A stretch of DNA of 64,000 nucleotides. Source: Opitutales bacterium (GTDB lineage: Bacteria > Verrucomicrobiota > Verrucomicrobiia > Opitutales > T3Sed10-336). Under the pieces are notes generated by a model. It saw nothing but the letters and a program-made list of their open reading frames with translations, ran no database searches and had not been told where the DNA came from. Both the position numbers and the translations under genes were made by a program. Location of the stretch: the NCBI GenBank assembly GCA_007130045.1, contig SLTG01000088.1, positions 24,647 to 88,646 on the forward strand. Reading direction: 5' to 3'. Shown here in pieces: positions 4,518 through 20,694 of this stretch (its first letter is position 1; each line of letters opens with the position of its first letter).

Positions 4518-4519
4518 CC

Positions 4520-5059: not shown

Positions 5060-5061
5060 AC

Positions 5062-7356: not shown

Positions 7357-8844
7357 ATGAGCGATTCTTCTTCACACCCGGATTCAAGCACCAATCGCGG
7401 CGGCGCTACCGGCCTCCAACCGTTCGGCTTGCGGGCAATCGACACATCGATGCGCGTGCCGGCCGTCGTCTTTGGGGCAATGTCGGTTCTCTGGTTGTTT
7501 GTCGCCACGCTGTTTGCGCTGATTACTTCCTTCAAGCTGCACACACCTGGCTTTCTCGGTCAATGGGAATTGCTGACGTTCGGACGGGTTCAGCCCGCCT
7601 ATATGACGATGTTTCTTTACGGCTGGGCGACCAATGCGGGTTTTGGGGTTGCATTCTGGATCATGGCCCGCCTTTCCAGGAACACCCTTCAGGCCGGCGT
7701 CACACTTTATACCGCCGCGGCGTTTTGGAACGTCGGGGTCCTGGTTGCGATCTTCGGCATTCTGATCGGCCACTTGAATCCGCACAAATGGCTGGAGATG
7801 CCGGGTTATGCCGCCCCGCTTCTGTTCGTGGCGTTTGCGCTTATCGCGGTGTGGGCGGTGCTCACGTTCAGATTCCGCCGGTCCGATTATTCGTATGTGT
7901 CTCAGTGGTACCTCCTGGCGGCCCTTTTTTGGTTTCCCGCCATCTTCGGAATCGCCTGCCTGATGCTCGTTTACGCTCCCGCCCGCGGCGTCGTCCAGTC
8001 GGTCGTCGGTATGTGGTATGCCCACAACCTCTACGCGCTCTGGCTGACGCCGATCGGACTTGCGGCGGCGTACTATTTCATTCCCAAAATCCTGGGCAAG
8101 CCGGTACACAGTTACTATTTCGCCGCTATCGCGTTCTGGACCTACCTTGTTTTCGCCAGTTGGGCGGGAACGCAGCACCTCGCCGGCGGGCCGGTCCCGG
8201 CATGGATCATTTCCTCCGGGATTGTCGGGAGCCTTCTCACGCTCTTTCCGGTCGTCATCATCGGTATCAATCACCACGTCTCAATGGCGGGAAACTTCGG
8301 AAAGCTTCGCACGAGTCCCACCCTGCGGTTCGTGTATTTCGGGGCGGTCGCGTTCACATCCGTCAGCATTCTGACCGCGTTCACCGCCTTCAGAAGCGTC
8401 CGGGAGGTCGTCCAGTTCACGTATTTCATGGACGGCCAGATGCAGTGGGGAATCTATGCCTGGTTCACGATGGCGATGTTCGGCGCCCTTTATTACATCA
8501 TGCCGCGGGTGCTCAATCGCGAGTGGCCTTCGGCCATGCTGATCAGGCTGCATTTCTGGACGTGCGCGTCCGGAATCGTTTTGTACGTTTTGGCCATGTG
8601 TATCGGCGGATGGATACAGGGGATTCAGATCAACAACCCAGGCGCGTATCCGGATTTCGTCGATGTCGTCGGAAACACCATGCCATGGTTGGTCGCCGGA
8701 AGTCTGGCGGGGATTCTTCTTCTGCTTGGCCACGCCGCGTTCGCTATCCATTTCTTCTGGATTCTCCTTCGCCCGGAGATCCCGGATGAGAGCCGATCGA
8801 AGCTCTTTAAGGAGCCGAAACACATGAAGGTTGCAGTGAAATGA
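7357..8844 (+). CDS. Heme-copper oxidase superfamily, cbb3 CcoN-like subunit I with a degenerate heme/CuB ligand set
   Basis: About 495-aa 12-TM protein. Long ungapped similarity to CcoN blocks (FGR..P, WYAHN, YYFIPK..KPV.SY, WAG..HL, RF......F, GALYY..PRV..RE, HFW....G..LY). Four of the six canonical His ligand positions read Tyr or Gln (see findings). Confidence 0.8.
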   Translation: MSDSSSHPDSSTNRGGATGLQPFGLRAIDTSMRVPAVVFGAMSVLWLFVATLFALITSFKLHTPGFLGQWELLTFGRVQPAYMTMFLYGWATNAGFGVAFWIMARLSRNTLQAGVTLYTAAAFWNVGVLVAIFGILIGHLNPHKWLEMPGYAAPLLFVAFALIAVWAVLTFRFRRSDYSYVSQWYLLAALFWFPAIFGIACLMLVYAPARGVVQSVVGMWYAHNLYALWLTPIGLAAAYYFIPKILGKPVHSYYFAAIAFWTYLVFASWAGTQHLAGGPVPAWIISSGIVGSLLTLFPVVIIGINHHVSMAGNFGKLRTSPTLRFVYFGAVAFTSVSILTAFTAFRSVREVVQFTYFMDGQMQWGIYAWFTMAMFGALYYIMPRVLNREWPSAMLIRLHFWTCASGIVLYVLAMCIGGWIQGIQINNPGAYPDFVDVVGNTMPWLVAGSLAGILLLLGHAAFAIHFFWILLRPEIPDESRSKLFKEPKHMKVAVK

Positions 8845-9494
8845 ACAAACTGTCGGTCATCATTACAGGCATACTCGTTACCATTGCCTTTTCCTGGGCG
8901 GGACTCGTGCTTACGAGCCATGTTCAGTTGGGCGCGCTCGAGCACCACGTTGACGAACTGTCGGGTGATTCGTTTCCTCCGCCGCGGGCCGGGATCGCCC
9001 GGAGAGGCAAGAAGACCTACCAGGAACTCGGTTGCGTCGCCTGCCACACCCAGCAGGTCCGGCGGCCGCGTGACGAGGAGACCTGGCGCCTGCCTTACGG
9101 GTACGCGGGCGATATCGAGCGCGGATGGGGCGAACGCCAGTCGGTGGCCCGCGATTACATTCGCGACGAAGTTGTATTGCTGGGAACCCGGAGGGTGGGT
9201 CCGGACCTCATGACGGTTGGCGGCAGGGAGGACACCCGCGAGTGGCATCATCGCCATTTGTACGACCCGCGTATCAACACACCCGGCTCGACCATGCCGT
9301 CCTATTCTTTTCTGTATAAAACCCGGGCGGTGGACGACGATCCGTCTCCGCGAGCGCTCGACCTTCCCGAGGGATTTGGAGCGCCGGCAGGGTATGAAGT
9401 TCTTCCGACACCCCGCGCCGATGCGCTTGTCCAATATCTTTTGAGTTTGCGAATGGATTACGAATTGCCGGAGGTTCCCGCGGAAAATGAGTGA
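8841..9494 (+). CDS. ccoO: cbb3-type oxidase subunit II (CcoO)-like monoheme cytochrome c
   Basis: 217 aa with an N-terminal TM anchor and motifs CVACHTQQVR, GTRRVGPDL..VGGR, WHHRHLYDPR and STMPSY. ATGA overlap with the upstream gene. Confidence 0.8.
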   Translation: MNKLSVIITGILVTIAFSWAGLVLTSHVQLGALEHHVDELSGDSFPPPRAGIARRGKKTYQELGCVACHTQQVRRPRDEETWRLPYGYAGDIERGWGERQSVARDYIRDEVVLLGTRRVGPDLMTVGGREDTREWHHRHLYDPRINTPGSTMPSYSFLYKTRAVDDDPSPRALDLPEGFGAPAGYEVLPTPRADALVQYLLSLRMDYELPEVPAENE

Positions 9495-10149
9495 TAAAAA
9501 GAATCAAGAACCGGACGACCGGGAGTTTTGCCTGGAGCAGGAAACGACTTCGGATGAGAGCATCCAGGAGGTCCATGATTCGTTGATGCACCAGAAGGAA
9601 TCGACGCGTGCCGGGTTTCCCATCCTGCCCATCATGATGGTCTTATTCTTCAGTCTGCTGATGCTGGTGGGAGGAATCTACATGGCGGATTACGGAGTCC
9701 GGTTCAGTGCTTTGGCTTTCGATGAAACCCGCGACCCGGCAACTCGTGAGCCGGAGGAGCCTTCAAAGGTGGATATGGTAGCCATGGGCCAAGGGGTTTA
9801 CCGGACCTGCGCCGCCTGCCATGGACCCGAAGGCCAGGGGACTCCTGGAGTGTTTCCGCCCCTCGTGGACACTGATTGGGTGCTCGGATCCAAGGATCGG
9901 CTCATTCGCATTGTCCTTAACGGTCTCACCGGGCCGATCGAAGTCAGGGGTGAGACGTACAACATGCCCATGGGTGGTCTAGGCGGCGCTTTGAACGATC
10001 GGGAGGTCGCAGCGGTTTTGACCTACATTCGACAGGCATGGGGTAACGAGGCTTCCGAGGTCACTCTCGAGGAGGTTTCGGATGTCCGGAGCGAAGTGGG
10101 AACCCGCGGACCCTGGACCGCCGAAGAACTCGAGCAATTCGTCGATTGA
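9487..10149 (+). CDS. Membrane-anchored class I monoheme cytochrome c (occupies the CcoP position)
   Basis: 220 aa with one TM helix (FPILPIMMVLFFSLLMLVGGIYM), a single CAACHGPEGQG motif and the later MPMGG. 8-nt overlap with the ccoO-like gene. Confidence 0.75.
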   Translation: MSDKKNQEPDDREFCLEQETTSDESIQEVHDSLMHQKESTRAGFPILPIMMVLFFSLLMLVGGIYMADYGVRFSALAFDETRDPATREPEEPSKVDMVAMGQGVYRTCAACHGPEGQGTPGVFPPLVDTDWVLGSKDRLIRIVLNGLTGPIEVRGETYNMPMGGLGGALNDREVAAVLTYIRQAWGNEASEVTLEEVSDVRSEVGTRGPWTAEELEQFVD

Positions 10150-10242
10150 CCCCCCACAACATGCGCCCGCTGTAACGTGCCCGCTTGCGGGCGCCACCCG
10201 CCGTACTGGAATGGCGCACACAGAGTCGGTGCGGCGGCGGGA

Positions 10243-10275
10243 CGGCGCTATGGAGGACACGCGCGGACGCTTTCC
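10243..10275. repeat. Left arm of an imperfect inverted repeat (partner at 12142-12173)
   Basis: cggcgctatggaggacacgcgcggacgctttcc. Its reverse complement recurs at 12142-12173 with a 17-nt perfect core. Confidence 0.7.
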
Positions 10276-10340
10276 GCTCCGTTGAATTCGGGACGAATGC
10301 GGCATTGCGTCATCGCGAATCCCCGTCTTAGGGTAACACC

Positions 10341-11141
10341 ATGCCTAAAATCGCATTCTTCGGGGCCGGACGAATGGCCACGGCAATGGTGCAGGGAATT
10401 CTCGCCCGAAAGGTCTGCGATCCTTCGGACATCATCTGCACGAGCGCGATGGACAACACGGCGGAAACACTGGCGCGGAAGTCGGGCATCAGTTTCAGCC
10501 TGCACCTTCCGGATCTCATGAAGGAGACCTCCATCGTGGTACTCGCCATGAAACCGCAGCAACTCGGGGAACTCCCCCGGGAGGTCGGCGCGGAGAGCGA
10601 GGGAAAACTCGTGATCTCGATTCTGGCGGGAAAACCGTTGAGCGCCCTCCGGGAAAAATTTCCCAGGGCCCGCAACATCGTACGTGTAATGCCCAATACT
10701 CCGGGCCAGATCGGCGCGGGGATCTCTGCGTTTTCCTCTCTGACTTCCTTGTCCGGCGAGGACCGCGAATCGGTGCGGGCTATCCTTGATTCTCTGGGAG
10801 AACGCCTTGAACTGCCCGAGGAGCAGCTCGACGCGGTGACCGGTCTCAGCGGCAGCGGACCGGCTTATGTGTTTGAGTTTATCGCGGGACTGACCGAGGC
10901 CGGCGTCGCCGCGGGACTCGATCATGGAGTTGCCGCGCGTCTAGCATTGAATACGGTGTGCGGCGCCGCGCGGCTCGTTTGGGAGACCGGCGAAAATCCC
11001 GAGGATCTTCGCGACATGGTGACTTCGCCGGGCGGTACGACTCTCGCCGGACTGGAGATGATGAAGGCGGGCGGTTTTCGCGACATCCTTCGCGACACCG
11101 TCCTTGCCGCGACGAAACGCTCAAAAGAACTCGCCCAATGA
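10341..11141 (+). CDS. proC: Pyrroline-5-carboxylate reductase
   Basis: 266 aa with an N-terminal Rossmann motif (KIAFFGAGRMATAMVQGIL), MPNTP and GSGPAYVF...MVTSPGGTT motifs. Confidence 0.9.
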   Translation: MPKIAFFGAGRMATAMVQGILARKVCDPSDIICTSAMDNTAETLARKSGISFSLHLPDLMKETSIVVLAMKPQQLGELPREVGAESEGKLVISILAGKPLSALREKFPRARNIVRVMPNTPGQIGAGISAFSSLTSLSGEDRESVRAILDSLGERLELPEEQLDAVTGLSGSGPAYVFEFIAGLTEAGVAAGLDHGVAARLALNTVCGAARLVWETGENPEDLRDMVTSPGGTTLAGLEMMKAGGFRDILRDTVLAATKRSKELAQ

Positions 11142-12136
11142 ACGCGCTTGAGAAAGGTGCCATCCTCGTGACAGGCGGGGCGGGGTTCATCGGGAGCGCG
11201 TTGGTCTGGCGGCTCAATGAAAAGGGCTTCGACGATATCGTCGTCAGCGACTTTCTCGGAACCGAAGAGAAGTGGAGGAACCTCGTTCCGCTGGCGTTCC
11301 GCGACTACATAGAAGCGGACGAGTTGATCGCGCGCCTGGAATCCGATCCCCCCTGCCTGGGAGAGATCGGGACGGTTTTGCACCTCGGGGCCTGCTCGGC
11401 CACGACCGAAACCGATGCCGGATACCTCGTTCGCAACAATTTCGAGTACACCAAGCGGCTGGCTTCGTGGGCGTTCGAACGCGGAGCACGGTTTATCTAC
11501 GCGTCGTCGGCCGCCACTTACGGAGACGGCGCCAATGGAATGGACGACGACATTGATTCCCTCCAAGCGCTGCGTCCCCTGAACATGTACGGCTATTCGA
11601 AGCATCTGTTCGACCTTTATGCGCGGCGAAAAGGGTGGTTCAAGAAGATCGTCGGATTGAAGTACTTCAATGTTTACGGTCCGAACGAAAACCACAAGGG
11701 CGACATGCGGAGCCTCGTCAATAAGGCATTCGGCCAGATCCTCGAAACAGGAAAAGTCCGGCTTTTCCGCAGTGATAAACCCGAGTACCGCGACGGCGAA
11801 CAGATGCGCGATTTCCTCTACGTCAAGGATGCCGTCGATATGACCCTCCATTTTGCAGAAAATACCTCGGAAGGGGGACTCTTCAATATCGGCTCCGGAG
11901 AAGCGAATACGTGGCTGACTCTCACCGAAGCGATCTTTGACGCGCTCGACCGCAAGCCGGACATCGAGTTCATCGACATGCCGGAGTCGATCCGCGAAAA
12001 GTACCAGTACCACACTTGCGCCGACATCACCCGGCTCCTGGAAACCGGCTACGACGGGAAATACCGGCCGCTTCCCGACGCCGTCGCCGATTACGTCCAA
12101 AACTACCTCGTCCCCGGCAGACACCTCGGCGAGTGA
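11138..12136 (+). CDS. hldD: ADP-L-glycero-D-manno-heptose 6-epimerase
   Basis: The internal ATG at 11138 (ATGA overlap with proC) gives 332 aa. Motifs VTGGAGFIGSALV, YASSAATYG, YGYSK and YFNVYGP..HKG closely parallel E. coli RfaD. The upstream part of track ORF 10958 is Arg-rich and overlaps proC. Confidence 0.9.
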   Translation: MNALEKGAILVTGGAGFIGSALVWRLNEKGFDDIVVSDFLGTEEKWRNLVPLAFRDYIEADELIARLESDPPCLGEIGTVLHLGACSATTETDAGYLVRNNFEYTKRLASWAFERGARFIYASSAATYGDGANGMDDDIDSLQALRPLNMYGYSKHLFDLYARRKGWFKKIVGLKYFNVYGPNENHKGDMRSLVNKAFGQILETGKVRLFRSDKPEYRDGEQMRDFLYVKDAVDMTLHFAENTSEGGLFNIGSGEANTWLTLTEAIFDALDRKPDIEFIDMPESIREKYQYHTCADITRLLETGYDGKYRPLPDAVADYVQNYLVPGRHLGE

Positions 12137-12141
12137 CGCTG

Positions 12142-12173
12142 GGAAGCGTCTGCACATGTCCTCCATAGCGCCG
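12142..12173. repeat. Right arm of the inverted repeat (partner at 10243-10275)
   Basis: ggaagcgtctgcacatgtcctccatagcgccg, the reverse complement of the 10243-10275 element apart from 3 transitions and 1 indel. Confidence 0.7.
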
Positions 12174-12192
12174 CCCCTCGCCCCCCGCCCCC

Positions 12193-12216
12193 CCTGTCCT
12201 CACGGACAGGCCTACC
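12193..12216 (+). repeat. REP-like hairpin element (7-bp stem, TCAC loop, CCTAC tail)
   Basis: cctgtcc-tcac-ggacagg-cctac. Same architecture as the elements at 29.5-29.7 kb and 34.9 kb but with a different, self-complementary stem sequence. Confidence 0.7.
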
Positions 12217-12220
12217 GAAA

Positions 12221-12281
12221 CACCGTCCCTCGCCCCCCGCCCCCCGCCCCACCTGCGCACCGTCCCACCGTCCCACCGTCC
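12221..12281. repeat. C-rich tract with octamer caccgtcc (one isolated copy plus three tandem copies)
   Basis: caccgtcc occurs at 12221 and three times in tandem at 12258-12281. It is embedded in C4-C7 runs spanning 12171-12290. Confidence 0.65.
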
Positions 12282-12401
12282 CGCCGCCGCGCCTCCGGAA
12301 TCCCCGGTTGACAGCAGCGGACGAGGGTATTCTTTGGACTTTATCGGCGGGTTCAAACATGCTTATACTTTCCCGCTGCCTGCAATACGCGTGATTTCAT
12401 T

Positions 12402-14369
12402 ATGGATGTACTCCTGATCGCACTTCTGGCCGGTATCGGATTCATCATAGCCTACCACACCTACGGGCGTTGGTTGGGACGGAAGATTTTCCGCCTTTCG
12501 GCCGAGGCCGTTTGTCCTTCGGAGAGCCAGAAGGACGACGTCGATTACGTCCCGACGAAAAAGTCGATCGTCTTCGGTCATCATTTCACCTCGATCGCGG
12601 CGACCGGCCCGATCGTCGGACCGGCGATCGCCGTGATCTGGGGTTGGCTCCCGGCCTTGCTCTGGGTGTTGCTCGGCTCGATATTCATCGGGGCCGTTCA
12701 TGACATGGGAAGCCTGGTGGTTTCCCTGCGCAACCGGGGACAGTCGGTGGGAGACGTCGCCGGACGGCTGCTCAATCAGCGCGTGCGCCTACTGTTCTTC
12801 GCCGTCCTCTTCCTCGCTCTGTCGATCATTATTGCGATCTTCGGACTCGTTATCGCCGCGGTTTTCCGGCAGTACCCGGCGGCGATCTTTCCCTGTCTCG
12901 TGCAGATTCCCATCGCGATTGGGGTGGGAATCCGGCTGCACCGGAAGGGCGTGGATCTGGTGATTCCTTCGATTCTGGCGGTGACGCTGATGTACTTTAC
13001 CGTGATCGTTGGTGACACCAATTTCAACTTCCCCTTCCTCGGCTGGGCGGCGGGCGAATGGGGACTACACGCGCTCAACCAGTGGTTTGCCAGTTGGCCG
13101 ACGATCGTCTGGGTGGCGGTGCTGCTCGGGTATTCCTACGTGGCGAGTGTGATTCCGGTGTGGGTGCTCCTGCAGCCGCGAGATTACATCAATGCGCTTC
13201 AACTGATTTCCGCGCTGACGCTGGTACTCGTCGGGCTCGTCGTCGCCTCGATGATCGGAGGAGCGCCGGCCGGCGAGGGAGCGGCGCGACAGTCGCTCGA
13301 ACTCAGCGCTCCGATGATCCAATGGAATCCGGCGGGCGCGCCGTTGATCGTTCCCTTCCTGTTCATCACGATCGCGTGCGGAGCGATTTCGGGTTTTCAT
13401 TGCCTGGTCAGTTCGGGGACGAGCAGCAAACAGCTTCGACGGGAAACCGATGCGCAATTTGTCGGTTACGGGGCGATGCTCACCGAAGGATTTCTGGCGA
13501 CGCTGGTAATCCTGGCGTGTGTCGCGGGCCTGGGGCTGGGCGTTGTGGCGGCGGACGGGACAGTACTGACCGGCTCGGAAGCATGGGCCTCGCGTTACGC
13601 GTCGTGGGGAGAAGCGGGCGGTCTGGCGGCGACTGTGGGCGCGTTCGTCGACGGAGCGGGTAATTTCCTGGCGGCTCTCGGGATTCCGGTCGCCGTGGCG
13701 GCGGCGCTGATGGGAGTGTTTGTCGCGTCGTTCGCGGCGACCACGCTCGATACCGCAACAAGGCTGCAGCGGTACGTGGTTCAGGAACTCGCGGCCGCCC
13801 TGAGCGGCAGGCGGCTTGGAGAAGTGGCTTCCGGGGCCGGTTCGGACTCCGGGGCGTTCGCCTCTTTTTTCCGGCTGGGCAACCGCTACACCGCGACCCT
13901 GGTCGCGGTCCTGGTCGCCGGCGCCCTGGCGTCGCTTCCGGGGCCGGGCGCCGAAGCCTGGACCCTGCAGACGGCGGGAGGCGGCGGATTGATCCTCTGG
14001 CCGATGTTCGGAGCGGTCAACCAGCTCATGGCCGGACTGGCTTTTCTCGTGATCGCATTCTGGCTGTGGAGGAGGGGAAGGCCGGTGTATTTTATCGTCA
14101 TCCCGCTGATATTCATGTTGATCGTGCCGGCCTGGGCGATGCTTTGGCAGGCGTTTGTCCAGGCGCCCGGCCAGGAGACGAGTTGGCTGCAGGACGGCAA
14201 TTGGATTCTCCTGTCAATCGGCGTCGCCACGGTAGTCCTCGAAATCTGGATGATCGTCGAGGCAATCAAGCTCTTTCCGCGCGTCAAAGGAGTCGTCGAA
14301 GACAACGCGCCGGATGCGATGCCCACGCAGAGCGCGTCCGGGCGCGTTCCTCGTCGGGCAGGAATATAG
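12402..14369 (+). CDS. cstA: Carbon starvation protein A family (peptide/pyruvate transporter)
   Basis: 655-aa polytopic membrane protein. Its N-terminus (MDVLLIALLAGIGFIIAYHTYGRWLG...HHFTSIAATGPIVGPAIAV.WGW.PA) is typical of CstA. Confidence 0.85.
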   Translation: MDVLLIALLAGIGFIIAYHTYGRWLGRKIFRLSAEAVCPSESQKDDVDYVPTKKSIVFGHHFTSIAATGPIVGPAIAVIWGWLPALLWVLLGSIFIGAVHDMGSLVVSLRNRGQSVGDVAGRLLNQRVRLLFFAVLFLALSIIIAIFGLVIAAVFRQYPAAIFPCLVQIPIAIGVGIRLHRKGVDLVIPSILAVTLMYFTVIVGDTNFNFPFLGWAAGEWGLHALNQWFASWPTIVWVAVLLGYSYVASVIPVWVLLQPRDYINALQLISALTLVLVGLVVASMIGGAPAGEGAARQSLELSAPMIQWNPAGAPLIVPFLFITIACGAISGFHCLVSSGTSSKQLRRETDAQFVGYGAMLTEGFLATLVILACVAGLGLGVVAADGTVLTGSEAWASRYASWGEAGGLAATVGAFVDGAGNFLAALGIPVAVAAALMGVFVASFAATTLDTATRLQRYVVQELAAALSGRRLGEVASGAGSDSGAFASFFRLGNRYTATLVAVLVAGALASLPGPGAEAWTLQTAGGGGLILWPMFGAVNQLMAGLAFLVIAFWLWRRGRPVYFIVIPLIFMLIVPAWAMLWQAFVQAPGQETSWLQDGNWILLSIGVATVVLEIWMIVEAIKLFPRVKGVVEDNAPDAMPTQSASGRVPRRAGI

Positions 14370-14482
14370 GCAGGACGGCAGAGGGATGTGTTGGTTGAAT
14401 CGTGTGGATCCGTGGCCGGTGTACCCAATCGTTTCAACCGCGTTCAAGCGATGAAACGTTGGACGGTAAATGTGGGGGATTT

Positions 14483-15403
14483 TCATCGGGGGCGGGGATT
14501 GTGGGCCACGGCATCGCCGCGGGCTTCGGGGCGGCGGCGCCACTCGGAAGGGGGCGTTCCGGTGATTCGGCGGAATTGCCGGGTGAAATAATTGCCGTCG
14601 CAGAAGCCGGTGCGGAGTCCGATTTCGCTTATGGAGAGATCGGTCCCGCGGAGGAGTCGCTGTGCCTGCCCGATGCGGTAGCGAATCAGGTAATCGAGCG
14701 GGGAGCTGCCGGTCACGGCACGGAATTTCCGCATTAGGGAGGAGCGGGACAGGCACCCGACCCGGCAGAGGGTGGCCACGTCCATCGGTTCGGAATGGTG
14801 CTGCTCGATGTAGCTCAATACCCGGCTCAGTTGTACCGCTCCATTGATGCGGGTTCTGGGTTTTTCACTGTAGCGGCGGGAGAGGAAACCGACCAGGCGC
14901 CGGAAATGGGAGATGGCGAGAAAGCGGTATCCTTCGCGGCGGGTTTCGAGTTCGCTCTCGATTTCGGTGACCATTTCATTTACCCCGGCAAATTCGTCGA
15001 GATCCAGTCGGAGGCGGTTGGGAAACGAACCGATCCGGCGCATGCGCGGCTCGATCTCGAACAGGGCGTAATATCCCGGAATCTCACCGAGATCCCAATC
15101 CACGAAGCCGAGTGCTTCCGCATCGAAGAGTACGTTGATGAGCGAGAGGTTCCGAACGTCCGGGTAGTGGTGGGTCATTGTCCCGGTAAGGACGAAGATC
15201 TCACCGGCGCGGATCTCGTAGTCGAATTCCCCGACCCGGTGGCGTCCCCACCCGTCCAGGATGATGACCAATTCCTGGAAATCGTGGCCGTGGGGATAAG
15301 GACTTGTCCTGTGGCTTTCGATCCGCCGGACGGAGAGGGGAATGCGGGGGTCCTCGAAGACCTGCTTGCGCCGAATTCTGTGGATGGAAGATGAGGAGGA
15401 CAT
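14483..15403 (-). CDS. AraC family transcriptional regulator (N-terminal cupin sensor, C-terminal double HTH)
   Basis: 306 aa. Cupin segment HGHDFQELVIILDGWG. C-terminus SSLMRKFRAVTGSSPLDYLIRYRIGQAQRLL...SISEIGLRTGFCDGNYFTRQFRRITGTPPSEWR. Confidence 0.9.
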   Translation of the reverse strand: MSSSSSIHRIRRKQVFEDPRIPLSVRRIESHRTSPYPHGHDFQELVIILDGWGRHRVGEFDYEIRAGEIFVLTGTMTHHYPDVRNLSLINVLFDAEALGFVDWDLGEIPGYYALFEIEPRMRRIGSFPNRLRLDLDEFAGVNEMVTEIESELETRREGYRFLAISHFRRLVGFLSRRYSEKPRTRINGAVQLSRVLSYIEQHHSEPMDVATLCRVGCLSRSSLMRKFRAVTGSSPLDYLIRYRIGQAQRLLRGTDLSISEIGLRTGFCDGNYFTRQFRRITGTPPSEWRRRPEARGDAVAHNPRPR

Positions 15404-15510
15404 GAATGAACAATGAAACGATCATGCTGATATTTGCGCGCATCGTCAAGGAGACTTGCAGATCGATTGGTTACACTGTAAAGAGATCCAACGCTTCCCT
15501 TCCCAACACT

Positions 15511-16635
15511 ATGGCATTGAAAATCGGCATCACGGGGGTCAAGGGCATCGGCAACACCCATGCCGATGCGTACGCCAAGGACGATCTGGCGGAACTGGTC
15601 GCGGTCTGCGACGTGGTCCGCGAGCGGGCGGACAAGACCGCCGAGACGTATGGCGTGAAGGCTTATTACCGCCTCTGCGACATGCTCGACGCGCACCCCG
15701 ATCTCGACATCGTCGATGTATCGACCGGGGGAGATGAAAACGGGGGTTGGCATTACGAGCCGACGATGGAGGCGCTGGCGGCGGGCAAGCACGTCCTTGT
15801 GGAGAAACCGATTTCCAACCGGATTGAGGAAGCCCGTGAAATGGTGGAATCGGCCGATGAGAAGGACCGCTATCTCGGATGCAACCTCAACCACTATTTT
15901 ACGGAACCGGCGGAACGTGCCGACCGGTTGTTCGCCGAGGGAAAGATCGGGGAGCCGGTCTTCTGTCTGCACCGTATGGGGTTTCCCGGCGGGGAGTTCG
16001 CGTACAAGCCGGTAGGCGGCCCGAACGCCGAGGGATTTCCGTATTTCCATGTGAAGGCCTTCCTGGCGCACCCCTTCGGGATCATGCGTCATTTCTGCGG
16101 GGACATCACCCATGTGCAGGCATTCATGGGACGTCCCGGCTTCCGGCGTCGCGAGACCGATCTTTTGGTCTCGGTGAACAGTATCCATTTGCGTTTCGCC
16201 AGCGGCTGCATCGGCTACCTGTTCAGCCAGCGGGGAGACGCCACCATGGGGCTCGGCGGCTGGTGGTCGCTGGAGGTCGGGGGAACGAAGGGCACGTTCT
16301 GCATTGAGAACTGTGTCGAGAAGATGACCTATTTTCCGGCGCCGGGCGCGGATGGATCGGCTTCTCCGGAGAACCTCGGGCTGGGACAGGCGCCGGAACC
16401 GGAAGTTTTCCATACGGGGGTGAGGGATTTCAAGACGACGTTTCCACGCCGCATCCACGCCTTCCTCGAGGATGTGGCCAACGCGGTGCCGAAGCACCGT
16501 CTGCGGGCCTCCGGACGCGATGCGCTAGCCACGCTTGAATACACCTTCGCCGCAATCGAGTCCTTCGAATCCGGCGGAGCGCTCGTGCGTCCCCATCCGT
16601 TGCCGCGGCGACAGCGTCGCGCGGACGAGGGATGA
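15511..16635 (+). CDS. Gfo/Idh/MocA family oxidoreductase
   Basis: The internal start MALKIGITGVKGIGNTHA gives a Rossmann N-terminus, and EKP is present (VLVEKPISN). The start could be as early as 15406. Confidence 0.8.
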   Translation: MALKIGITGVKGIGNTHADAYAKDDLAELVAVCDVVRERADKTAETYGVKAYYRLCDMLDAHPDLDIVDVSTGGDENGGWHYEPTMEALAAGKHVLVEKPISNRIEEAREMVESADEKDRYLGCNLNHYFTEPAERADRLFAEGKIGEPVFCLHRMGFPGGEFAYKPVGGPNAEGFPYFHVKAFLAHPFGIMRHFCGDITHVQAFMGRPGFRRRETDLLVSVNSIHLRFASGCIGYLFSQRGDATMGLGGWWSLEVGGTKGTFCIENCVEKMTYFPAPGADGSASPENLGLGQAPEPEVFHTGVRDFKTTFPRRIHAFLEDVANAVPKHRLRASGRDALATLEYTFAAIESFESGGALVRPHPLPRRQRRADEG

Positions 16636-16675
16636 GTCCGCCCAACACACGAAGATTTTCAACGATTGTAATCAA

Positions 16676-17476
16676 ATGATGAAACTGGGAGCCAATTCAG
16701 TCCTGTTCGGGGGACATTCGATGGAGACCGCCTTTCGCTGGACCCATGCCGCGGGGTACGACGGGATTGAGATCTCCGCCATCCCCGGAATGAGCGAGCA
16801 TCTCGTCCTCGACCGCTGGCGGGAGTGTGCGCCGGAGATTACGGAACTCTCCGCGAAGTACGGCCTCGCCCTGCTCGCCATGGAGCAGCCGAAGCAAGAC
16901 GAGGCGATTATGAAGACCGCGATGGAAGCCGCCTCGGTGATCGGAATCCCGGTCATCAACTGCGGGCCGGGGGGGAAGAGCGGCGACGAAGATTCCCTGA
17001 AGGAACGGATTGCGTCGTTGAAACGGCTTGCCGCCATGGCGGAGGATCACGGGGTCGTTCTTTGTGTCAAAGCCCATGTGGGTGCGGCGATCGACGATAC
17101 CCCGACTTCTCTGCGCGCCTTGGAGGAAATTGATTCGCCCGCCTTTGGACTGGACATGGATCCGAGCCACATTCACCGCGCGGGCGAAAACCCGGTCGAG
17201 GCCCTCGGCGTCGTAATCGAGCGTATCAAGCATGTCCATATCCGCGACTGCCGCGGGAGGCAGAAGGGACCGGGCAACCCGGAGGACCAGGCCAACGGCC
17301 GCGGGGATATCGACCTCCTCGGGTACGTGCGCGTGTTGCACGAAGCGGGATACGACGGTCCGGTCGATCTCGAGATCATTGGAGCGAAGGAATACTCGGT
17401 CGAGCGGTGTTGTCTCATCGCGGCGGAAGCGCGGGGCCATATGCAGGCCTGCCTCCAGGCCTGCGGCGCCAGGTAA
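16676..17476 (+). CDS. Sugar phosphate isomerase/epimerase (xylose-isomerase-like TIM barrel)
   Basis: The internal start MMKLGANSVLFGG gives 266 aa, with motifs GYDGIEIS, LDMDPSHIH and HVHIRD typical of the AP-endonuclease-2/IolE-type TIM barrel. Confidence 0.75.
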   Translation: MMKLGANSVLFGGHSMETAFRWTHAAGYDGIEISAIPGMSEHLVLDRWRECAPEITELSAKYGLALLAMEQPKQDEAIMKTAMEAASVIGIPVINCGPGGKSGDEDSLKERIASLKRLAAMAEDHGVVLCVKAHVGAAIDDTPTSLRALEEIDSPAFGLDMDPSHIHRAGENPVEALGVVIERIKHVHIRDCRGRQKGPGNPEDQANGRGDIDLLGYVRVLHEAGYDGPVDLEIIGAKEYSVERCCLIAAEARGHMQACLQACGAR

Positions 17477-17510: not shown

Positions 17511-18926
17511 ATGAATACAGACAAACCGAACATTCTGCTGATCGCGGTGGATTCTCTGCTCTCCACGCACATGAGCACCTACGGTTATCCCCGGCTGACG
17601 ACCCCGCATATCGACCGGTTCGCCCGGGACGCGGCGGTTTTCGAACAGACATTTTCGCCCTTTGTTCCGACCACTTCCGCGTATGCCTCCATGCTCACGG
17701 GCCGGGATCTTTTCGGCACGCAGGTCGTCGCGCTTCGCCACAAGGGTCCCCTGCGCGCCGAAGTGCGCACTTTGCCCGAGATGCTCCGGGAGCACGATTA
17801 CCGGAGCGTCTGCGTCGGCTTCGAGCGGAACCCGTCGAGCCGGGGCTTCGATGAATACCTTCAATATCCGGCGTGGGAAAAAATGGACGCCGACGGGCGC
17901 ATGCCCAAAGCCGGAAATCTCAACGACGTTTTTTTGCCTTGGCTCCGGAACGCGGTTCGGACGGGGGACCGGTGGTTCGCCTTCCTCCGGCACATGGATC
18001 CGCATTCGCCCTACCTGCCACCCAAACCCTTCGACCGGATCTTCTATCAGGGCGACGAGCGCGACCCGTCGAATCGGTCCATGGACCCGGTGCGCGCCTT
18101 CGCTCCCTTCGCCGACTATTTCGCCTCCTGGATTCCGGAAGACGTCACCGACAAGGACTACGTGATCGCGCAGTATGACGGGGCCATCGCTTACATGGAC
18201 GCCTGCATCCAGTGGATCTTCGCTTTGCTTGAAAGGGAGGGAGTCCTCGACGAGACCCTGGTCGTATTGAACGGCGACCACGGCGAGACCCTCTACGACC
18301 ACGAGTGCTGGTTCGATCACCACGGGATCTACGATGTCTGTCTCAAGGTGCCGCTCATCATCCGCTACCCCCGTCGCGTTCGCCCGGGTGCCAGGGTGTG
18401 GGGATACAATCAGCACAAGGATCTCGTGCCCTCGATTCTGGACCTTGCCGGAATTACGGTGGAGGACGCCTTGGACGGGCGTTCGGTCGTGAGCCTGCAC
18501 GATGGCGGGGAGGCGAGTTTCGAGTCTTCGTTCTACCTGACAGAATGCACCTGGATGCGCAAGCACGGCTGGCGCACGCCGCAGTGGAAACTTATTGTCG
18601 CGCTGGAACCGGACTTCCACTTCAAACCGGAAGTGGAGCTTTACAACCTCGTCGAAGACCCCGGGGAAACCGTGAATCTCGCCGAAGAACGCCCGGACGT
18701 GGTCGCGCAATTGAAGGAGGAAATGGAGGCCCACATCGCCCGCAGGGAGAGCGAAACCGGACTTTCCAATCCGGTGCGCAACCAGCCCGGCTGGCACGGG
18801 ATCAAGGGAATTGATTACTTTACTTCGAGCCAGCAGGCCTACGATAACCTTCACATCGGCAGCCGGAAGCAGGCCCGCGGTTTGCAGGCGAAGGAGACGG
18901 GGGAAGACAAGGAAAAGGGCGGATGA
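17511..18926 (+). CDS. Sulfatase-fold (alkaline-phosphatase superfamily) enzyme lacking the formylglycine motif; no signal peptide
   Basis: The start MNTDKPNILLIAVDSL gives 471 aa. Sulfatase blocks are present (PNILLIAVD, ASMLTGR, MDPHSPY, NGDHGE), but the C/S-x-P-x-R position reads T-T-S-A-Y. Confidence 0.8.
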   Translation: MNTDKPNILLIAVDSLLSTHMSTYGYPRLTTPHIDRFARDAAVFEQTFSPFVPTTSAYASMLTGRDLFGTQVVALRHKGPLRAEVRTLPEMLREHDYRSVCVGFERNPSSRGFDEYLQYPAWEKMDADGRMPKAGNLNDVFLPWLRNAVRTGDRWFAFLRHMDPHSPYLPPKPFDRIFYQGDERDPSNRSMDPVRAFAPFADYFASWIPEDVTDKDYVIAQYDGAIAYMDACIQWIFALLEREGVLDETLVVLNGDHGETLYDHECWFDHHGIYDVCLKVPLIIRYPRRVRPGARVWGYNQHKDLVPSILDLAGITVEDALDGRSVVSLHDGGEASFESSFYLTECTWMRKHGWRTPQWKLIVALEPDFHFKPEVELYNLVEDPGETVNLAEERPDVVAQLKEEMEAHIARRESETGLSNPVRNQPGWHGIKGIDYFTSSQQAYDNLHIGSRKQARGLQAKETGEDKEKGG

Positions 18927-19681
18927 GCGCGCACCGGCAGCCTCCCTGGGTAACGGTGATCGGCCGCGGTCATTCGGGAACCCGCGCCATTTCGAGGACC
19001 CTGGTCGAAAGCGGCGTGTTCATGGGGGAACCCTTGAACGCCTCCTCGGACTTGGTTCCGCCCGACGCGATGTACGACGCTTGCCGGTTGATGTCACCCT
19101 TCGTCGATTGGAAGGGCGGAACGGAGTGGTCGTGGAAGCGTTGTCACGAAGGGGCCATTCCGACCGAATTCACGAACCTGCTCGACAACTATCTCGATTC
19201 CGTCCACCGAAGCCGGAATCCCCGGAAGGGCTGGAAGATTCCCGAGACGACCCTGGTCTATCCCTGGATCCGGCGTCTGTTTCCGGAGATGAAGACGATT
19301 TTCTGGGTGCGGGATCCGCGCGACTGCATCCTCGGCGGGCACGTGACCGATGACCTCTCCCGCTTCGGGATTCCCTGCGGCGGGACGGAGGATCCTTATG
19401 AGCGGCGTGCGCTGTCGTGGTTCTATCAATACAAAATTGTTCGTGGGACTCCGCCTCCGGAGTCCTGGATCGAAGTGCGTTTCGAGGATTTCGTCCTCGA
19501 TCAGGAAGAGACGCTCGCGCGGTTGGAGGCCTTCCTTGGCATTCCTTTGGCGAAGATTCCGGTCAAGCCCGAGGCCGTGGGTCGGTACCGCCGGGAGAAA
19601 ACTCCTCCGTATTTCGGATTTCTCGATGAGGCGGTGCGGGACTTCGGCTATACGCCTCAGGTAGTGAGCCGCGGGGAGTGA
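18923..19681 (+). CDS. Sulfotransferase family protein
   Basis: 252 aa with a P-loop-like 5'-PSB motif (VIGRGHSGTRAIS), a 3'-PB-like motif (IFWVRDPRDCILG) and the C-terminal VRFEDFVLDQEETLARLEAFLGIPL. ATGA overlap with the sulfatase-fold gene. Confidence 0.75.
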   Translation: MSAHRQPPWVTVIGRGHSGTRAISRTLVESGVFMGEPLNASSDLVPPDAMYDACRLMSPFVDWKGGTEWSWKRCHEGAIPTEFTNLLDNYLDSVHRSRNPRKGWKIPETTLVYPWIRRLFPEMKTIFWVRDPRDCILGGHVTDDLSRFGIPCGGTEDPYERRALSWFYQYKIVRGTPPPESWIEVRFEDFVLDQEETLARLEAFLGIPLAKIPVKPEAVGRYRREKTPPYFGFLDEAVRDFGYTPQVVSRGE

Positions 19682-20694
19682 TGGAAAGGATTGCCATGCA
19701 GAAAGCCGGTGTCATCGGAATGGGCCCTGTCGGGAATCGCCACGCCTCCATTTACGCGGAATTGGAAACGGCGGAACTCGCCGCAGTGTGCGACATCGAC
19801 CGCGAACGCGCGGATGCGGCTGGAAGAAAGTTCGGCGTCCCGGTTTTTTACTCGGTGCCCGCGATGATTGAAGGGGAGTCCCTCGATATGGTGAGTGTCA
19901 CGACCGCAGGGGAGGAGTATGGAAGCGACCATTACGAGCCCACCATTCAGGCCCTCGATGCGGGGCTCCATGTCCTCGGTGAAAAACCGATCTGTAACGA
20001 AATCGGGAAGGCGGAAGCGATGGTGGCGAAGGCACGCGAGCGCGGCCTGTGTTACGGAATCAACCTGAACCACCGTTTCACCCCGGCGGCCCGGCTCGCC
20101 CGGAAATGGGTGGACGAGGGCAGGGTGGGCACTCCGCTCTTCCTCAATATGAGCATGTGGATCCAGAACCCGCGGGAGTCCTCGCCCTGGTTCCAGATCA
20201 AGGCCCTGCATCCCCACACCGTGGACATCCTCCGGCACTTCGGGGGCGATATCGAAGCCGTTCAGTGCTTTGCCATGAAGGCCCCGGGGCGGAAGATCTT
20301 TTCCACCGCCCAGTTCAACCTCCGCTTTGTCAGCGGGGCGGTCGGCCACCTTTGCGGAAGTTACGACATCGAACGCGGCCATCCCATGGAGCGGTTCGAA
20401 ATGGCCGGCCTCAAGGGCCGGATCGTCCTTGAGGACATGTGGCGGGAACTTACCCTTTATCCGGCCGGAAGTCTCGAAAAGACCGTTTTCACCAACCCGG
20501 TTTTCGGCGGCGTGAGGGATTTCTTCGACACTTTCCGCAACCGGATCGCCCGATTCGTCGAACAAGTGAACGACCGGGATCCACCCGAAGCGATCGATGG
20601 GTCGGGCGCCGACGGCCTTGCCGCCCAGCGCGTTCTCGCCGCCGCCATCCGCTCCGTTGAAGAGGAACGGGTGGTCAAGGTGGAGGAAGGGTGA
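19681..20694 (+). CDS. Gfo/Idh/MocA family oxidoreductase
   Basis: About 337 aa with N-terminal KAGVIGMGPVGNRHASIY and GEKP. The start is ambiguous (GTG 19678, ATG 19681 or ATG 19696) and overlaps or abuts the sulfotransferase stop. Confidence 0.8.
   Translation: MERIAMQKAGVIGMGPVGNRHASIYAELETAELAAVCDIDRERADAAGRKFGVPVFYSVPAMIEGESLDMVSVTTAGEEYGSDHYEPTIQALDAGLHVLGEKPICNEIGKAEAMVAKARERGLCYGINLNHRFTPAARLARKWVDEGRVGTPLFLNMSMWIQNPRESSPWFQIKALHPHTVDILRHFGGDIEAVQCFAMKAPGRKIFSTAQFNLRFVSGAVGHLCGSYDIERGHPMERFEMAGLKGRIVLEDMWRELTLYPAGSLEKTVFTNPVFGGVRDFFDTFRNRIARFVEQVNDRDPPEAIDGSGADGLAAQRVLAAAIRSVEEERVVKVEEG

Follow-up and report, generated by a model that had tools for sequence, protein, structure and literature searches.

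What does a protein with the fold of a type I sulfatase do when a threonine stands where the formylglycine-forming cysteine or serine is expected? This question is raised by a gene in the 64,000-nucleotide stretch of DNA from an Opitutales bacterium that was analysed here (the window). An earlier interpretation, made from the letters of the DNA and termed the sequence-only reading below, had pointed out the threonine and had suggested a phospho- or sulfo-transfer enzyme rather than a hydrolytic sulfatase. The most likely function is that of a formylglycine-independent, metal-dependent esterase or transferase, which uses a threonine nucleophile on a monoanionic sugar ester. The most informative feature of the locus, which the sequence-only reading did not mention, is a conserved operon that contains a sulfotransferase gene.

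The Gene, the Motif and the Predicted Fold

The features of the locus are collected in Table 1. The ATG at 17511 (MNTDKPNILLIAVD...) is regarded as the real start of the Thr-type gene, because a longer open reading frame from 17232 overlaps the upstream gene and because the homologues begin at the same methionine. The reading frame is intact, as had been claimed, and encodes 471 amino acids up to the stop codon at 18924-18926. The nucleotides 17670-17705 read ACCACTTCCGCGTATGCCTCCATGCTCACGGGCCGG and are translated in frame to TTSAYASMLTGR; thus, the segment and its L-T-G-R end had been described correctly, and so had the motifs PNILLIAVD (residues 6-14), MDPHSPY (residues 162-168) and NGDHGE (residues 254-259).

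Table 1. Coordinates of the genes and sequence motifs at the locus, given as positions of the window.
Feature	Position	Strand	Remarks
Divergent AraC-family regulator, cupin or AraC-binding domain	14483..15403	-	Pfam; same arrangement in related loci L004, L036, L071, L107, L115, L126, L155
Gfo/Idh/MocA oxidoreductase GFO1	15406..16635	+	Pfam: NAD-binding domain from residue 38
Xylose-isomerase-like TIM-barrel protein	16676..17476	+	266 aa, directly upstream of Thr-type gene; PF01261, 1.4e-28
Thr-type sulfatase-fold gene	17511..18926	+	471 aa, predicted cytoplasmic; PF00884 and SGSH_C C-terminal domain
Asp14-Ser15	17550..17555	+	Asp14 first metal ligand by alignment; Ser15 in place of the second Asp of the sulfatase D-D
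Motif T54-T-S-A-Y-A-S-M-L-T-G-R65	17670..17705	+	Codon 17670-17672 (ACC) is Thr54, nucleophile column
His165 in RHMDPHSPY	18003..18005	+	Aligns with His of canonical sulfatases and of EptA GSHGP
D256-H257-G-E259 ... H264 ... H270	18276..18320	+	Asp256 and His257 metal ligands by alignment; His270 at sulfate-binding Lys position of sulfatases
Sulfotransferase-family gene	18923..19681	+	252 aa; PF13469 Sulfotransfer_3, 9.5e-15
Gfo/Idh/MocA oxidoreductase GFO2	19678..20694	+	Pfam; start at 19678, 19681 or 19696, abutting the sulfotransferase stop

The protein matches PF00884 from end to end (residues 6-315 on model positions 1-301 of 301, E 1.8e-42, 146.1 bits versus a cut-off of 25 bits), and residues 266-408 match SGSH_C (PF16347). 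None of the curated NCBIfam models was matched at its cut-off. The absence of a signal peptide was confirmed, since just five residues precede the first core strand of the catalytic domain, at a place where the aligned residue of secreted sulfatases has number 25-44; a hydrophobic N-terminal region is also missing. In contrast to the secreted sulfatases, the Thr-type protein is therefore predicted to be cytoplasmic. The motif scan of the window revealed no further sulfatase-type motifs, and no tRNAs were found in it.

The AlphaFold2 (AF2) model of the protein has a pTM of 0.80, and its top Foldseek matches are all S1 sulfatases (TM 0.58-0.64, E about 1e-23), in agreement with a predicted two-domain alpha/beta sulfatase fold. 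In the model, strand 42-49 leads to a helix of residues 54-63, at the beginning of which Thr54 stands. The placement of Thr54 at the metal site was checked by alignment to solved enzymes. The confidence is low (pLDDT < 50) for residues 258-275, the loop with His264 and His270, so that the placement of these two residues at the metal site comes from the alignment alone. Sequence and profile searches of the PDB found no solved structure that combines the S1 architecture with a threonine nucleophile.

Comparison With Type I Sulfatases

S1 sulfatases and phosphonate monoester hydrolases (PMH), e.g., AtsA of P. aeruginosa (1HDH), BT4656 (5G2V) and the Agrobacterium PMH (4UPH), share the two-domain architecture and the SGSH_C-type C-terminal domain with the Thr-type protein, and they are by far its best matches in sequence and structure (phmmer 1e-27, profile search 5e-66). 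Also common to both are the first metal-binding Asp, the D-H/N-G pair, the His of P-H-x-P, and the L-T-G turn that follows the nucleophile helix. In contrast, the cysteine or serine that is converted to formylglycine in S1 sulfatases is replaced by Thr54, which lies in the formylglycine column, as had been proposed, in alignments with 4uph, 5g2v, 7oz8 and a canonical C-T-P-S-R sulfatase. The Pro and Arg of the C-x-P-x-R motif for maturation and catalysis had been reported as lost, and the profile alignment indeed has Ser56 and Tyr58 in their place, the latter at sulfatase Arg55. Furthermore, the Lys113-x-His115 segment of sulfatases is deleted or replaced by Phe104, which is invariant in the family of the Thr-type gene, and the sulfate-holding Lys375 is replaced by His270. 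Of the calcium ligands Asp13, Asp14, Asp317 and Asn318 (AtsA numbering), the counterparts Asp14 and Asp256 are kept, while Ser15 stands at the second Asp, where most of the wider clade has Thr, and His257 at the Asn. The variant with His instead of Asn also occurs in PMH (PMC12421950). The Agrobacterium PMH is the best phmmer match in the PDB (4uph, 1.2e-27), yet PMH has a formylglycine nucleophile in C-x-P-x-R, whereas the aligned residues are Thr and Tyr here.

A regular expression search with the updated forms of the two S1 signatures gave the same picture. The first signature does not match the protein, the aligned segment being V-P-T-T-S-A-Y-A-S-M-L-T-G. The second (PS00149, G-Y-x-[TSCV]-x(3)-G-K-...-[WMYNLF]-[HLGN]), which carries Lys113 and His115, is not matched either; the aligned segment is D-Y-R-S-V-C-V-G-F-E-R, with Lys-Trp-His deleted or replaced. 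Both fail with the query, with 120 close homologues and with 150 clade representatives, while the neighboring canonical sulfatases, used as a positive control, pass at least one signature, and some of them match the first. A [CS]-x-[PA]-x-R sequence is present elsewhere in the protein only as S419-N-P-V-R in the C-terminal tail, without a following L-T-G and with a Ser that varies among the homologues. At the nucleophile column neither Cys nor Ser is available for oxidation, and according to the SulfAtlas authors an oxidized Thr would yield a ketone and not formylglycine (PMC5066984). The strictly conserved Thr at this column and the failure of both signatures exclude a formylglycine sulfatase, and in this respect the sequence-only reading was right. 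The Mn-dependent arylsulfatase of Enterococcus faecium, which was considered as a model because of a match to NCBIfam NF052527, was dropped, as it has Cys61 within a canonical C/S-x-P/A-x-R motif.

Conservation of the Threonine

Homologues with 65-89% identity occur in about 11 phyla, and the family of the Thr-type gene has members in at least 588 species genomes. P-T-T-[SP]-[AG]-Y is kept in 120/120 close homologues and in all 80 genome loci, which also come from about 11 phyla. Across these 80 loci codon 54 is ACA (31), ACC (29), ACG (16) or ACT (4). This synonymous variation at a universally conserved residue, together with the presence of the identical protein on seven contigs of independent assemblies, shows that Thr54 is neither an accident nor an error.

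The other putative active site residues are similarly constant. Asp14, His165, Asp256, His257, Glu259 and His270 are invariant in an alignment of 48 sequences that are 28-68% identical to the query (A2). Asp14 is invariant also in a second alignment (A1) and is found in 113 of 115 clade representatives, and His165 is kept in 135 of 137.

By sequence, the family appears to be a member of a very large Thr-type clade on the two-domain S1 scaffold. This clade comprises 4,628 representatives (50%-identity clusters) at E < 1e-30, and its separation from the Cys/Ser sulfatases was read from the ranks of the scores; the canonical motif occurs in none of the top 150. The nucleophile column contains Thr in 117 of 124 representatives of the wider clade, and T-x-P is retained in 106 of the 124. 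The missing Pro is thus real in the protein studied here, but it is a trait of the subfamily only. The Thr itself is also no oddity within PF00884, in contrast to the impression given by the sequence-only reading, since 30 of the 59 Pfam seed sequences have it (PMC5066984). Literature searches on Thr-substituted sulfatases and on the gene combination described below yielded nothing beyond this remark of the SulfAtlas authors. Thr within PF00884 is already known in general, and the Thr-type family described here is an uncharacterized variant.

Similarity to Enzymes With a Threonine Nucleophile

The alkaline phosphatase superfamily contains enzymes of the EptA/MCR-1/LptA and LtaS types, which have a Thr nucleophile in the same column as Thr54, and the sequence-only reading had named such transferases as users of a Thr nucleophile. 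An hhalign comparison of the clade profile with E. coli EptA is in agreement with this comparison (probability 98.4%, E 8e-15), as it puts Thr54 on the nucleophile Thr of EptA. In the same alignment Asp14, Thr54, His165, Asp256, His257 and His270 fall on the EptA motifs GETSR, GTATA, GSHGP, SDHGES and YLHG. Asp14 thereby aligns with the Glu of GETSR, as it does with the D-D of a canonical sulfatase. We take the E. coli EptA motifs to correspond to MCR-1 numbering in such a way that His165 matches His395 and His270 matches His478. The set Glu/Asp, Thr, His, Asp, His, His is common to EptA-type enzymes and the Thr-type protein, and so is the motif S-D-H-G-E-[ST]-L-x-[ED]-[HN]-x-x-x-[FY]-x-H. In MCR-1, Zn1 is bound by Glu246, Thr285, Asp465 and His466, and Zn2 by His395 and His478 (PMC5175174). 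By alignment, each of the six invariant residues has one counterpart among the ligands of both zinc sites and the Thr nucleophile of EptA/MCR-1.

However, the Thr-type protein is not an Ept enzyme in its overall organization. The similarity to EptA is far lower than that to S1 sulfatases (E 8e-15 with hhalign versus 5e-66 in the profile search, two methods whose values are only roughly comparable), and the NCBIfam Ept and LtaS models reach 14-29 bits versus cut-offs of 404-970 (CptA: 29 versus 404). EptA and LtaS have a periplasmic domain on an N-terminal membrane anchor of several helices and use membrane phospholipids as donors, whereas the Thr-type protein is predicted to be soluble, lacks the anchor domain, and carries the S1 C-terminal domain. 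A second group, the NPP enzymes (PF01663), also has a Thr nucleophile on a metal site and prefers monoanionic diesters; promiscuous sulfatase activity is known for them. PF01663 is matched with 27.5 bits versus a threshold of 23 bits in residues 223-300 only. This match is confined to the D-H-G segment, while the remainder has sulfatase topology and a six-ligand bimetallo zinc site is not demonstrable.

The Operon and Its Conservation

The Thr-type gene belongs to a conserved module, the other members of which are a PAPS-type sulfotransferase gene, one or two genes for Gfo/Idh/MocA dehydrogenases, and a gene for a TIM-barrel isomerase. The divergent AraC-family regulator is likely to control the operon. 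The true start of GFO1 is probably the ATG at 15511; the orthologue in one related locus (L004) has 375 amino acids. Orthologues in related loci are 53-75% identical for the TIM-barrel protein and 63-73% for GFO2. The ATG of the sulfotransferase gene overlaps the stop codon of the Thr-type gene (ATGA). The sulfotransferase has a conserved loop, I-G-R-G-H-S-G-T-R, and a conserved motif, R-D-P-R-D. Its family profile matches tyrosylprotein sulfotransferases (TPST) and the CurM sulfotransferase weakly, and a PDB search with the single sequence gave nothing significant.

The module is present in 30 of the 49 genome loci with full flanks and was found in sponge symbionts, Chloroflexota, Planctomycetota and relatives. 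In the reciprocal test, which started from the sulfotransferase in metagenomes, 16 of 21 loci contained the Thr-type gene. In Gemmatimonadota and Latescibacterota the Thr-type gene is accompanied only by a Gfo-type dehydrogenase and a TIM-barrel protein. In Poribacteria it is found with a PhyH dioxygenase and a PEP-hydrolase-like protein; because of this different context, a single pathway role may not fit all members of the family. ABC importers, rhamnose genes and genes of canonical sulfatases are frequent neighbors of the module; related loci contain Opp-type ABC importers, RhaA, a rhamnulose-1-phosphate aldolase/dehydrogenase fusion, GH78 and RhaM as well as sulfatases with the canonical C-x-P-x-R.

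The families of the operon partners, the Gfo/Idh/MocA dehydrogenases and the xylose-isomerase-like TIM barrels, also make up several oxidative modules of sugar processing, i.e., those for inositol (IolG/IolE/IolI), levoglucosan (LgdA/B), glycoside 3-dehydrogenation (e.g., BT2156-2160) and C-glycosides (DgpA/B/C). Searches with the operon partners gave weak matches to IolG, levoglucosan dehydrogenase, the BT_2158 and BT_2159 families, IolE/IolI and keto-glucal hydratase; in NCBIfam searches with all of the partners the scores stayed far under the equivalog cut-offs, and the similarity of the TIM-barrel protein to IolI, IolE, sugar epimerases and keto-glucal hydratase is only remote. None of these sugar systems is known to contain a sulfatase-fold enzyme or a sulfotransferase.

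Proposed Mechanism and Alternative Explanations

Taken at a probability of about 0.6, the Thr-type protein would be a soluble cytoplasmic metalloenzyme of the alkaline phosphatase superfamily, in which the active site of an S1 scaffold has been rebuilt to the Thr type of phosphoethanolamine and phosphoglycerol transferases, and which acts within a cytoplasmic sugar module. The analysis shows which residues are present and conserved, how they align with known catalytic residues, which fold the protein has and how the genes are linked; catalysis itself, the transferred group and the substrate are inferred. Asp14, Thr54, Asp256 and His257 would hold a metal ion that brings down the pKa of the hydroxyl group of Thr54. 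This residue could then attack the tetrahedral sulfur or phosphorus center of a monoanionic ester, which would be a sugar or cyclitol derivative of the sulfate monoester or the phosphodiester type, and the leaving group would be stabilized by His165 and His270, perhaps aided by a second metal. Either water or an acceptor hydroxyl would resolve the resulting covalent Thr54-O-sulfuryl or Thr54-O-phosphoryl intermediate; to our knowledge, a sulfuryl-Thr is without precedent as a productive catalytic intermediate. Formylglycine maturation would be neither needed nor possible. The enzyme would work in a co-transcribed cytoplasmic module together with the PAPS-type sulfotransferase, one or two Gfo/Idh/MocA dehydrogenases, a TIM-barrel isomerase or dehydratase and the AraC-type regulator, and this module may process an imported compound derived from carbohydrates. 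Transfer in place of hydrolysis, as the sequence-only reading had suggested, is an inference, and so is any choice between phosphate and sulfate: the set of Ept-like residues speaks for phosphoryl transfer, while the obligate sulfotransferase partner and the neighboring canonical sulfatases speak for sulfate.

A bolder version, which we regard as tentative and rather doubtful, is that the Thr-type clade represents formylglycine-independent handling of sulfate esters on the S1 scaffold. Thr54 on a one- or two-metal site would take the sulfuryl group of a sugar sulfate. The group could then be passed to water, which would make the enzyme a new mechanistic class of sulfatase, or to another hydroxyl, as in a sulfo-mutase or a PAPS-independent sulfotransferase, or its departure could be promoted. 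Together with the dedicated PAPS sulfotransferase this would constitute a cytoplasmic sugar pathway with sulfate as a handle. Such a pathway may be likened to the role of phosphorylation in ordinary sugar catabolism. Cpz4 of caprazamycin biosynthesis was considered as an example of a sulfatase-like PAPS-independent sulfotransferase that is paired with a PAPS sulfotransferase, and was dropped because it is of the aryl-sulfotransferase type and does not have the sulfatase fold (PMC13426309).

It is improbable that the protein is a catalytically dead pseudo-sulfatase, the old pocket of which only binds a sulfated or phosphorylated ligand, e.g., as a sensor, a chaperone or a scaffold for the neighboring enzymes. 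Five of the ten classical S1 active site residues are changed and four are kept, one more being the Asn to His257 variant that is common in PMH. The mean column identity of 73% across phyla extends over the entire surface, an unusual level that proteins under constraint from contacts with other proteins also show. However, dead homologues normally lose the metal-binding and nucleophilic residues, whereas all of those of the Ept-type enzymes are invariant here, and the gene is embedded among the enzymes of a metabolic operon.

Very improbable is a role as a phosphomonoesterase in the service of the sulfotransferase, which would destroy PAP (3'-phosphoadenosine 5'-phosphate) or hydrolyze PAPS or APS instead of acting on a sugar substrate. 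Enzymes of the superfamily with a Thr or Ser nucleophile are phosphatases as a rule, translation of the Thr-type gene is coupled to that of a PAPS-type sulfotransferase gene, and in Gemmatimonadota loci a NUDIX hydrolase gene lies directly upstream of the Thr-type gene. However, in 29 of the 49 loci with full flanks the Thr-type gene occurs without the sulfotransferase gene, while the sulfotransferase gene is rarely found without the Thr-type gene, so that the dependence runs the wrong way for a helper enzyme. Lastly, an ordinary type I sulfatase, with the Thr explained by a faulty alignment, an error in sequencing or a recent mutation that inactivated the enzyme, would fit the strong PF00884 match and the names 'sulfatase' or 'arylsulfatase A-like enzyme' in public records, but the sequences already refute it, as four independent alignments place Thr54 in the nucleophile column, the protein nowhere has a C/S-x-P/A-x-R with L-T-G behind it, the equivalents of Arg55, Lys113, His115 and Lys375 are all missing, and the seven identical copies and the synonymous codons speak against error or recent mutation.

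Implications for the Family

Sulfatase counts are widely used to infer the degradation of sulfated glycans by marine and gut bacteria, and genome annotation names Thr-type proteins 'sulfatase'. Because the proteins of the Thr clade cannot be formylglycine sulfatases, such counts are inflated and the real activity of these proteins is hidden. If the enzyme of the preferred reading handles sulfate esters without formylglycine, it would represent a new catalytic solution to a reaction that was thought to need the cofactor in the S1 fold, and the maturation enzymes that limit the heterologous use of sulfatases would no longer be required. If it is a phosphodiesterase or a transferase, it would be an example of a sulfatase scaffold that has been converted back to the chemistry of Thr and metal. 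Either way, the five genes of the tightly conserved module, with a sulfotransferase that looks catabolic, represent an uncharacterized pathway.

Threonine at the Nucleophile Position

The segment at positions 17670-17705 of the window (ACC ACT TCC GCG TAT GCC TCC ATG CTC ACG GGC CGG) encodes T-T-S-A-Y-A-S-M-L-T-G-R and belongs to an uninterrupted gene for a protein of 471 aa (17511-18926, + strand), the Thr-type gene. The longest open reading frame starts at 17232, with the extra part running into the upstream gene, and a start Met before K-P-N-I-L-L is common to all homologs. The protein is a full-length match to Pfam PF00884 (146 bits), followed by the PF16347 sulfatase C-terminal domain. 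With just five residues ahead of the first core strand, it has no signal peptide. In pairwise alignments with the solved sulfatases 4uph, 5g2v, and 7oz8, Thr54 shares a column with formylglycine/Cys/Ser, Ser56 with the Pro, and Tyr58 with the Arg; identical columns resulted from a profile alignment with the canonical sulfatase of a related locus (S-I-C-T-P-S-R-A-V-I-L-T-G). This agrees with the sequence-only reading, which had described an intact gene without signal peptide, a Thr nucleophile, the loss of Pro and Arg, and an intact L-T-G-R. That motif reading also stands after a search for [CS]-x-[PA]-x-R elsewhere in the protein, where the sole match is S419-N-P-V-R in the C-terminal tail, which is not followed by L-T-G and has an unconserved Ser.

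An identical protein is encoded on seven contigs from independent assemblies. A word-indexed search retrieved more than 5,600 relatives, and in the best 120 (65-89% identity, E < 1e-211) P-T-T-[SP]-[AG]-Y is present without exception, so that the Thr is kept in orthologs. Scanning one genome per species for the signature peptides of the family identified at least 588 genomes. The 80 loci taken from them span Lentisphaerota, Abditibacteriota, Gemmatimonadota, Chloroflexota, Armatimonadota, Latescibacterota, Poribacteria, Planctomycetota, Deinococcota, and Spirochaetota, and the protein search added relatives from Kiritimatiellia. Codon 54 is ACA in 31, ACC in 29, ACG in 16, and ACT in 4 of these loci; as all four codons are used, it is the amino acid itself that is conserved. 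The mean column identity of the family across phyla is 73%, a very high value for a metabolic enzyme. The Thr at position 54 is thus selected and not accidental.

When 1.84 billion cluster representatives were searched exhaustively with HMMER, 4,628 matched below 1e-30. The best 150 of these, down to E about 1e-47, were aligned (27-68% identity over the matched stretches, below 60% for near full-length members). The nucleophile column is Thr in 117 of the 124 representatives that cover the site, and canonical C/S-x-P-x-R was found in none of the 150. The motif of the wider clade is T-x-P-[SAG]-[HFY], with the Pro present in 106/124; therefore, the Pro loss is peculiar to the subfamily of the window. 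Throughout the clade, D14, T54, D163, H165, Y168, D256, H257, E259, H264, and H270 vary hardly or not at all. That the protein is a pseudo-enzyme is unlikely, because precisely the catalytic residues are the invariant ones.

Additional invariants, i.e., Cys266, Cys346, His271, and the block E-C-T-W-M-R-K-H-G-W-R-T-P (residues 264-271, 345-351), are kept within the wider clade just in the subfamily's own representatives, and may be substrate-specificity or additional metal-binding elements. In the AF2 model (pTM 0.80, mean pLDDT 74.7), which is unreliable over residues 258-275 (pLDDT < 50), Thr54 opens helix 54-63 after strand 42-49. All Foldseek matches of this model are S1 (formylglycine-dependent) sulfatases. 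Among solved structures, the clade profile matches only formylglycine sulfatases or phosphonate monoester hydrolases (best 5e-66), and none of them combines a Thr nucleophile with S1-type architecture.

Comparison With Sulfatases and Phosphoethanolamine Transferases

Active-site residues of the Thr-type protein and their counterparts in the P. aeruginosa sulfatase AtsA and in E. coli EptA
Thr-type protein	AtsA	EptA
Asp14	Asp13 (kept)	Glu of GETSR
Ser15	Asp14	
Thr54	Cys51	nucleophile Thr of C-G-T-A-T-A
Tyr58	Arg55	
deleted or replaced; Phe104 invariant	Lys113-x-His115	
His165	His211 (kept)	His of G-S-H-G-P
Asp256 (-His257-Gly-Glu259)	Asp317 (kept)	S-D-H-G-E-S
His257	Asn318	
His270	Lys375	His of Y-L-H-G

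Where sulfatases have cationic residues to hold the sulfate, the Thr-type protein has His and aromatic residues. Both updated S1 signatures (PMC5066984) are absent from the query, from the 120 close homologs, and from the 150 representatives, whereas the canonical sulfatases encoded near Thr-type genes carry at least one of them. An ordinary sulfatase is excluded by the sequence.

Profile-profile alignment of the clade with the phosphoethanolamine transferase EptA gave a probability of 98.4% (E 8e-15). The EptA motifs GETSR, C-G-T-A-T-A, G-S-H-G-P, S-D-H-G-E-S, and Y-L-H-G are presumably the counterparts of the Zn1 and Zn2 residues of the related enzyme MCR-1. These are Glu246, Thr285, Asp465, and His466 for Zn1, and His395 and His478 for Zn2 (PMC5175174). 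The residue match suggests that the Thr-type protein is an S1 sulfatase scaffold with the catalytic constellation of Thr-type phospho-transferases.

Operon and Genomic Neighborhood

Genes of the operon in the window and of the Poribacteria loci
Feature	Position	Strand	Remark
Divergent AraC-type regulator	14483-15403	-	
GFO1, Gfo/Idh/MocA dehydrogenase	15406-16635	+	
Xylose-isomerase-like TIM barrel	16676-17476	+	
Thr-type sulfatase-like gene	17511-18926	+	
Sulfotransfer_3 protein	18923-19681	+	ATG overlaps stop of Thr-type gene (ATGA)
GFO2, second Gfo/Idh/MocA dehydrogenase	19678-20694	+	abuts sulfotransferase stop
Poribacteria context (L022, L074, L079, and 11 other loci)	about 9000-12400 each		Thr-type gene between PhyH-family Fe(II)/2-oxoglutarate dioxygenase and PF09370 PEP-hydrolase-like protein

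The operon around the Thr-type gene had escaped the sequence-only reading. No terminator-like sites lie between its + strand genes, and the whole scan did not exceed the shuffled-sequence count. As annotated, the starts of the regulator (15403) and of GFO1 (15406) leave next to no intergenic space. The true GFO1 start is probably the ATG at 15511, because the Pfam NAD-binding domain begins at residue 38 and one ortholog is 34 aa shorter; this would leave about 105 bp for divergent promoters. Upstream (about 7500-14400; positions 1-6859 of the overlapping locus L001) are genes for a cbb3-type cytochrome oxidase (COX1, FixO, dihaem cytochrome c), pyrroline-5-carboxylate reductase, an NAD-dependent epimerase, and the carbon-starvation transporter CstA, and downstream for an HU-like DNA-binding and a TraF_2-like protein. 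None of these genes appears to be connected with the module.

Partners within 8 kb were counted at 49 genome loci, each flanked by 7 kb or more in both directions. A Gfo-type dehydrogenase was found at 30, the TIM barrel at 26, and the sulfotransferase at 20 of them. The dioxygenase and PEP-hydrolase-like protein occur instead at 14/49 loci, every one from Poribacteria, and constitute a second conserved context. The same PhyH family also occurs at the edge of Phototrophicaceae clusters. In the reciprocal test, 21 full-flank sulfotransferase loci from a separate metagenome collection contained the Thr-type gene in 16, a GFO2 ortholog in 18, and the TIM barrel in 16 cases. Therefore, the sulfotransferase is essentially dedicated to the module, while the Thr-type gene is also found without it. 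This dependence is the reverse of that expected for a PAP or PAPS phosphatase in the service of the sulfotransferase, which makes such a role of the Thr-type protein unlikely. In the sulfotransferase, the loop G-R-G-H-S-G-T-R and the motif R-D-P-R-D are retained. Weak matches of its profile are tyrosylprotein sulfotransferases and the CurM sulfotransferase, and these features fit a PAPS-dependent enzyme.

At related loci, genes around the module encode Opp-type ABC importers, a GMC oxidoreductase, canonical C-x-P-x-R sulfatases (several lineages), L-rhamnose isomerase and a rhamnulose-1-phosphate aldolase/dehydrogenase fusion (Phototrophicaceae), a GH78 rhamnosidase (Ardenticatenales), and RhaM (Kiritimatiellae). 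The similarity of the dehydrogenases and the TIM barrel to inositol and keto-sugar pathways is remote, which leaves the recurrent rhamnose genes as the sole pointer to the carbon skeleton of the substrate. In Caldilinea, a 689-aa protein without Pfam or NCBIfam match lies between an Opp-type transporter and the module (L086, 4756-6825), at the place of the Ardenticatenales GH78 rhamnosidase (L005, 5283-7967); it may be an unrecognized glycoside hydrolase. A conserved 287-aa protein without family match accompanies the Phototrophicaceae clusters (L012, 2826-3689). In one Phototrophicaceae MAG, the module is interrupted by a type I restriction-modification methylase/specificity fusion gene (L046, 14208-16499), which separates the second dehydrogenase from the TIM barrel. 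A Caldilineaceae MAG contains tandem Thr-type genes next to the TIM-barrel gene (L068, 3663-5069 and 5092-6444; 64 and 61% identity to the query). The Gemmatimonadota locus L015 encodes a second PF00884 protein (15370-16803, - strand; also present in L088, 15403-16836), which is accompanied by a separate TIM-barrel gene and by an HpcH aldolase. It has C-S-P-Y-G for C-x-P-x-R, i.e., the Cys is kept and the Arg is lost, as well as the G-Y-x-T-x3-G-K-W-H signature, and is another non-canonical sulfatase-fold variant.

Proposed Function

The best-supported reading is that of a formylglycine-independent, metal-dependent enzyme with Thr54 as the predicted nucleophile; the earlier proposal of a phospho- or sulfo-transfer enzyme instead of a hydrolytic sulfatase seems right in direction. 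A metal on Asp14, Asp256, and His257 would activate Thr54, a covalent Thr54 ester intermediate would be formed, and departure of the leaving group would be aided by His165 and His270, perhaps together with a second metal. Monoanionic sugar or cyclitol esters are the favored substrate class. This charge is common to sulfate monoesters and phosphodiesters, and enzymes of the alkaline phosphatase superfamily are known to cross between the two, as exemplified by promiscuous phosphonate monoester hydrolases, arylsulfatases, and NPPs. The residue set of the protein argues for phosphoryl chemistry. Sulfate chemistry is argued for by the sulfotransferase partner, the neighboring true sulfatases, and the taxa involved, which are known to degrade sulfated glycans.

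Thr proteins within PF00884 are already known, and LtaS and the Ept enzymes are well-studied members. The SulfAtlas authors noted a Thr in 30 of the 59 Pfam PF00884 seed sequences and did not term such proteins sulfatases (PMC5066984). In the literature, NCBIfam, and the PDB, we found no description of a soluble Thr clade with S1 architecture, of its Ept-like residue set, or of its constant association with a sulfotransferase and sugar oxidoreductases. If it is true that the Thr-type enzyme handles sulfate esters, its interest would be far greater.
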